Assembly: GCF_050920415.1 (NCBI RefSeq)
Contig: NZ_CP169309.1
Source: Escherichia coli
GTDB taxonomy: Bacteria; Pseudomonadota; Gammaproteobacteria; Enterobacterales; Enterobacteriaceae
Strand: one strand, 5' to 3'
DNA: 64,000 bases
In this document: positions 44,617 to 44,693 of the stretch, in pieces
How positions within the stretch are numbered: the first letter of the stretch is position 1
How the letters are laid out: each line of letters opens with the position of its first letter
Program-made: the position numbers and the translations under genes
Notes under the pieces: generated by a model
Told to the model about the DNA's origin: nothing
Seen by the model: only the letters and a program-made list of their open reading frames with translations
The model's database searches: none

Positions 44617-44693
44617 CGCGGGGTGGAGCAGCCTGGTAGCTCGTCGGGCTCATAACCCGAAGGTCGTCGGTTCAAATCCGGCCCCCGCAACCA
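44617..44693 (+). tRNA. metY: Initiator tRNA-fMet (anticodon CAU), fMet1-type sequence with G in the variable loop
   Basis: 77-nt CGCGGGGUGGAGCAGCCUGGUAGCUCGUCGGGCUCAUAACCCGAAGGUCGUCGGUUCAAAUCCGGCCCCCGCAACCA; three consecutive G-C pairs in the anticodon stem; first gene of the rimP-nusA-infB operon. Confidence 0.95.

Follow-up and report, generated by a model that had tools for sequence, protein, structure and literature searches.

The metY locus of a non-K-12 Escherichia genome carries an initiator tRNA gene of the tRNAfMet1 type

Results

Organization of the metY locus

The window, by which we mean the whole analysed stretch of 64,000 nucleotides from contig NZ_CP169309.1 (assembly GCF_050920415.1, Escherichia coli), contains two tRNA genes according to ARAGORN, and metY is one of them (Table 1). 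It lies between argG, which is divergent and upstream, and the gene series rimP-nusA-infB-rbfA-truB-(rpsO)-pnp. A single initiator tRNA gene flanked by divergent argG and a rimP leader, then followed by rimP, nusA and infB, is the arrangement that marks the metY locus, and it is the one found here. The argG-metY-rimP flanks are collinear with those of MG1655, and the gene is therefore metY itself rather than a metZ copy that has moved. A translocated metZ copy was rejected on the same evidence: argG, on the minus strand, precedes the gene, and the rimP leader (RF01770) and rimP follow it.

Table 1. Coordinates of metY and neighbouring features in the window
Feature	Position	Strand	Details
IS21-family element, about 2.12 kb, inserted in yhbX	40039-42159 (ends uncertain by about 3 bp)		Absent from MFDS1022581 and MG1655
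IstA-like transposase, rve domain, 348 aa	40139-41185		In the yhbX insertion
IstB (IstB_IS21 ATPase), 265 aa	41307-42104		In the yhbX insertion
argG, upstream neighbour, divergent	42926-44269	-	447-aa ORF; annotation of MG1655 and MFDS1022581
Sigma-70 promoter-like site, TTGACA-18 nt-TATAAT	44495-44524	+	12/12 consensus positions in a consensus scan; same in MG1655; about 90 nt 5' of the tRNA
Weaker promoter-like site, TTTGCA-18 nt-TAGAAT	44572-44601	+	9/12 positions, consensus scan only; directly 5' of the tRNA
metY, initiator tRNA-fMet gene	44617-44693	+	77 nt, anticodon CAT, own CCA end encoded; called as tRNA-Met at exactly these ends by ARAGORN; identical to K-12 metZ/W/V (tRNAfMet1)
tRNA position 46	44663	+	G in the window, A in K-12 metY; sole within-gene difference from MG1655
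rimP leader	44782-44882	+	Rfam RF01770 (Gammaproteobacteria rimP leader), 102 bits, gathering score 47; between metY and rimP
Two terminator-like hairpins inside the rimP leader	44815-44838, 44863-44875	+	Terminator scan
rimP, first protein gene of the operon 3' of metY	44900-45352	+	ORF 44888-45352; annotated rimP of MFDS1022581 maps to 44900-45352

Judged by its sequence, the site with the full consensus is a candidate for the main promoter driving metY-rimP-nusA-infB. A 651-bp alignment of the metY region with MG1655 has 12 differences, and from the -35 hexamer of this site through the start of rimP only two bases differ, one at 44571 and the other at position 46 of the tRNA. As a separate observation, 10 of the 12 differences cluster at 44373-44493, a stretch of 120 bp upstream of the -35 hexamer that lies between the divergent argG and metY promoters; the transcribed leader, the tRNA and the attenuator are conserved much more strongly than this upstream control region.

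The gene scores 61.4 bits against the Rfam tRNA model RF00005 (gathering score 29), and its minimum free energy fold is a cloverleaf with position 1 unpaired, so that ARAGORN, Rfam and the fold agree on a cloverleaf tRNA with the anticodon CAU. The z-score of the fold (-0.90) is unremarkable, as tRNAs commonly are in this respect, and counts for less than the covariance-model score; it was dropped as proof of a tRNA, and the covariance model and ARAGORN were used instead. None of the initiator identity elements is missing. C at position 1 faces A at position 72 in the C1xA72 mismatch, which is followed by the pairs G2:C71 and C3:G70. The anticodon stem has three consecutive G:C pairs (G29:C41, G30:C40 and G31:C39), and the D stem has a purine 11 : pyrimidine 24 pair in the form of A11:T24 (A11:U24 in the RNA). 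The C13:G22 pair can likewise be read from the sequence.

Comparison with the MG1655 initiator tRNA genes

The four initiator tRNA genes of MG1655 (metY, metZ, metW and metV) were aligned with the window gene, which contains the string CCCGAAGGTCGTCGG quoted in the original prediction. There were no differences from metZ, metW or metV and one differing column against MG1655 metY, at base 47 of the gene, where the window has G and MG1655 has A. With the extra base 17a in the D loop taken into account, base 47 of the gene corresponds to canonical position 46. The gene is thus of the tRNAfMet1 isoform, with G46 and the rest equal to the products of metZ/W/V, and does not have the A46 that defines the tRNAfMet2 isoform of the K-12 metY type. 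The original prediction, which had called this gene fMet1-type and had placed an A at position 46 of K-12 metY, is borne out on both counts, since MG1655 metY indeed has A and metZ/W/V have G. The annotation of 44617-44693 should accordingly read metY, initiator tRNA-fMet (tRNAfMet1 sequence).

Frequency of G46 and A46 at metY in E. coli

Allele counts were made by exact matching in 5,425 matched complete E. coli genomes. A G46 96-mer that includes the metY-specific 3' trailer was found exactly in 4,649 of them, and its 5'-anchored counterpart in 4,710. Taking the 774 genomes that are not identical to the 3'-anchored G46 96-mer as the number of A46 carriers proved to be an overstatement, as BL21(DE3), an O121 strain and OW1E2 have G46 together with a single-nucleotide change in the trailer. 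The A46 count was therefore redone with reciprocal A-allele queries: the 3'-anchored 96-mer, the 5'-anchored 96-mer, the 77-nt tRNA alone and a 40-mer designed so that A46 falls within each 28-nt megablast seed. Each of the four gave 365 genomes, and the 40-mer hit the same 365 genomes and no others, at one chromosomal place in each. An exact A46 copy is hence absent from 5,060 of the 5,425 complete genomes. Every non-A46 metY locus that was aligned had G46; this includes six residual genomes without an exact match to one of the G46 96-mers, in which a flanking single-nucleotide change accompanied an intact G46, three of them differing at trailer base 44708 and three, none of them K-12, at leader base 44608. 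The original prediction had placed G46 in E. coli B and in many other strains, and here BL21(DE3) does have G46, but 'many' is too weak a word for a state departed from in so few genomes.

These counts also bear on whether the G at 44663 might be an error of sequencing or assembly, for instance through reads from metZ/W/V being collapsed onto metY. Four near-identical repeat genes can confuse short-read assemblers. The 96-mers in question, on the other hand, span both G46 and the unique metY leader or trailer, and they recur exactly in thousands of independent complete genomes, so that G46 is not a sequencing artefact; strain MFDS1022581 moreover matches the window at 99.99-100% over more than 45 kb. 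We regard an error at this base as vanishingly unlikely.

Two polymorphisms in the flanks of metY were common in the same set of genomes. At 44708 in the 3' trailer, C alternates with T (T in BL21(DE3), the O121 strain and OW1E2), and about 400 genomes without A46 differ from the trailer 96-mer of the window. At 44608 in the leader, 9 nt 5' of the mature end, C also alternates with T (T in IBS28, EC71 and AHB18), and about 350 genomes without A46 differ from the leader 96-mer of the window. The number of initiator-tRNA-gene matches per complete E. coli genome ranged from 1 to 8 with a median of 4, four of the places being on plasmids; MFDS1022581, the closest relative of the window, has 5 such places against this median.

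Carriers of A46 and the ancestral state

The A46 carriers sampled are mostly named K-12 laboratory strains, such as MG1655, W3110-type strains, DH10B, DH5alpha, MC4100, C600, HB101, XL1-Blue, EMG2, J53 and others; roughly 110-120 of the 365 were listed by name, four ambiguous ones were checked by sequence and the rest were assumed to be K-12. The four ambiguous carriers have labels that point to natural sources, namely SF10 (duck), EC06 (human gut), YZ22MPE54 (pork) and USML2 (oil palm). When the 20 kb surrounding metY were compared, all four were 99.99-100% identical to MG1655, against 97.4% for a non-K-12 control, and they were rejected as natural non-K-12 carriers of A46. All A46 carriers that were examined belong to the K-12 lineage.

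Outside E. coli, the A46 22-mer CTCATAACCCGAAGATCGTCGG did not occur exactly in any of 100,044 genomes representing bacterial and archaeal species. The G46 22-mer, used as a positive control, matched at least 120 stretches in the same species representatives and is widely spread over Gammaproteobacteria; Escherichia albertii, Citrobacter, Enterobacter, Providencia, Photorhabdus, Vibrio, Shewanella, Aeromonas and Pseudomonas are among the matches listed. The absence of the one and the wide occurrence of the other argue that G46 is the ancestral and near-universal state and that A46 arose on the K-12 branch. From these sequence comparisons, A46 appears to be a derived G-to-A change that, within the sampling, belongs to the K-12 clone alone, and it is this base of K-12 that calls for an explanation.

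A different history would have G46 as a secondary state, acquired when a metY with A46 was converted by metZ/W/V in the lineage of the window. Multi-copy tRNA genes homogenise by conversion, and metY of the window is the same as metZ/W/V in sequence. Yet an exact A46 copy is missing from 5,060 of the 5,425 complete E. coli genomes, and the A46 22-mer from the species representatives in which the G46 form is widespread; none of the close clade I relatives or outgroups was found to have A46 at metY. By parsimony, this distribution is explained by one G-to-A change on the K-12 branch, with no need for conversion, which we consider very unlikely. It is almost certain that the window gene is the normal, ancestral metY allele, the solitary initiator tRNA gene heading metY-rimP-nusA-infB, with a product no different from that of metZ/W/V; no observation speaks against this reading.

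Lineage of the window

Identity between the window and MG1655 is 96.9-97.7%; E. coli strain MFDS1022581 matches the window at 99.99-100% to either side of a 2.1-kb insertion. The window is not K-12. In the part from 30000 to 54000, an identity of at least 99% was reached in only 13 of about 5,400 genomes, mainstream E. coli staying at or below 97.8%; in the part from 1 to 24000, the same small group was closest (98.6-100%) and every other genome was at or below 97.3%. The group includes EC42405 and 2013C-4282, both of which PMC10100065 counts among the fully sequenced genomes of Escherichia cryptic clade I. We infer that the window comes from cryptic clade I or a lineage closely allied to it, and its source probably falls outside E. 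coli sensu stricto as well. About 18 complete 'E. coli' genomes are 98.6-100% identical to the window and all others are at or below 97.8%, which marks a rare, deep lineage.

The original prediction had read G46 as a hint of a non-K-12 E. coli lineage. The non-K-12 assignment stands, but G46 is weak evidence for it, being the default state, and the lineage is more distant than was implied. A stronger version, in which G46 at metY would be an informative marker of one specific group outside K-12, for instance E. coli B, is extremely unlikely. Its appeal is that E. coli B is the classic published example of a G46 metY, as related in PMC3017606, and that BL21(DE3) does have G46. The allele counts already refute it, since about 93% of complete genomes, from many sources and serotypes, have G46, and the base excludes K-12 only. 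BL21 is also distinct from the window at trailer base 44708. Identity to the window is about 97-98% in mainstream E. coli and exceeds 99% only in the small group that includes cryptic clade I genomes. As an ancestral, near-universal state, G46 in the window says that the genome is non-K-12 and nothing further.

Two other features set the window apart from MG1655. An IS insertion in yhbX had been predicted, and the sulfatase-family yhbX is in fact split into two ORFs by an IS21-family element. The flanks of the insertion overlap by CATAATT and the element ends are TGTCA...TGACA, consistent with the insertion of an IS21-family element and the duplication of a short target. The insertion is recent, as the element is absent from the otherwise 99.99-100% identical MFDS1022581 and from MG1655. 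In addition, about 150 bp of the MG1655 dacB-obgE intergenic region (L006, 32428-32579) are without a counterpart in the window (30346-30353) or in MFDS1022581, which have about 6 bp instead; a possible explanation is a REP-type intergenic element whose presence varies with lineage.

Discussion

The contrast between the two initiator tRNA forms is an old one. In K-12, metZWV encode tRNAfMet1 with m7G46 and metY encodes tRNAfMet2 with A46, and in E. coli B tRNAfMet1 comes from all four genes; both statements are made in PMC3017606, which cites Mandal and RajBhandary 1992 (J Bacteriol 174:7827). The m7G46 modification is made by YggH/TrmB (PMC7949028), and the K-12 initiator pool has been put at about 75% G46 (tRNAfMet1) and 25% A46 (tRNAfMet2) (PMC8887418). 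In a 2026 preprint (bioRxiv 10.64898/2026.04.16.719103), six laboratory strains were aligned and K-12 metY alone deviated from the consensus; the same preprint reports a C17-to-A variant in metW of Nissle 1917 and cites a suggestion that A46 has an effect on fitness. The difference between K-12 and B at metY was thus already published in 1992, the finding is already known and its biology is ordinary. The only incremental result of the present work is the population count, in which A46 does not extend, within the sampling, beyond the K-12 clone. Very probably, tRNAfMet2 is a private allele of that clone, and the G46 of the window is the wild-type state in a genome resembling cryptic clade I.

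The working of the gene can be projected from what has been characterized in E. coli. As with the known tRNAfMet, metY would be transcribed from the strong promoter about 90 nt upstream, within the operon transcript, and the tRNA would be cut out by tRNA-processing RNases. Given its 100% identity to the characterized tRNAfMet1, the product would be charged by MetRS via the CAU anticodon, formylated by Fmt because of the C1xA72 mismatch, and delivered straight to the ribosomal P site, aided by the three anticodon-stem G:C pairs and by IF2 and IF3. G46, expected to sit against C13:G22, would serve as the TrmB/YggH substrate for m7G46, a modification known for the identical K-12 tRNA (PMC7949028, PMC8887418); trmB itself is outside the window. 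Relatives suggest that a cell with a G46 metY would make a single initiator species, compared with two in K-12, the metZWV genes of the source genome being outside the window.

The biological weight of the finding is small, and what it confirms is that the window is not K-12. Seen from the population, the two-species initiator tRNA pool of K-12 is an oddity of the reference strain and atypical for E. coli. This has some practical bearing wherever the A46 'metY' is taken as a template for engineered initiator tRNAs, or where the stoichiometry of m7G46 is read.

Three known genes or gene groups offer a direct comparison. K-12 metY (b3171, tRNAfMet2) shares with the window gene the locus, promoter, leader, trailer and rimP leader, as well as 76 of the 77 bases of the gene, but its A46 cannot receive m7G, so that K-12 makes a second, minor initiator species, whereas the window has G46. 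The reverse holds for K-12 metZ, metW and metV, the tRNAfMet1 genes: their 77-nt sequences are the same as that of the window metY, yet they form a tandem triplet at another locus, bordered by mltA and amiC, where promoter and flanks are different and which is outside the nusA-infB operon. The metY gene of E. coli B, as seen in BL21(DE3) (NC_012892.2), agrees in both respects, for it occupies the same argG-metY-rimP locus and its 77-nt gene is identical, with G46, and encodes tRNAfMet1. It is told apart from the window gene by its trailer, with T at the position of window base 44708, where the window has C, and by its background, BL21 being a mainstream E. coli and the window clustering with genomes of cryptic clade I.
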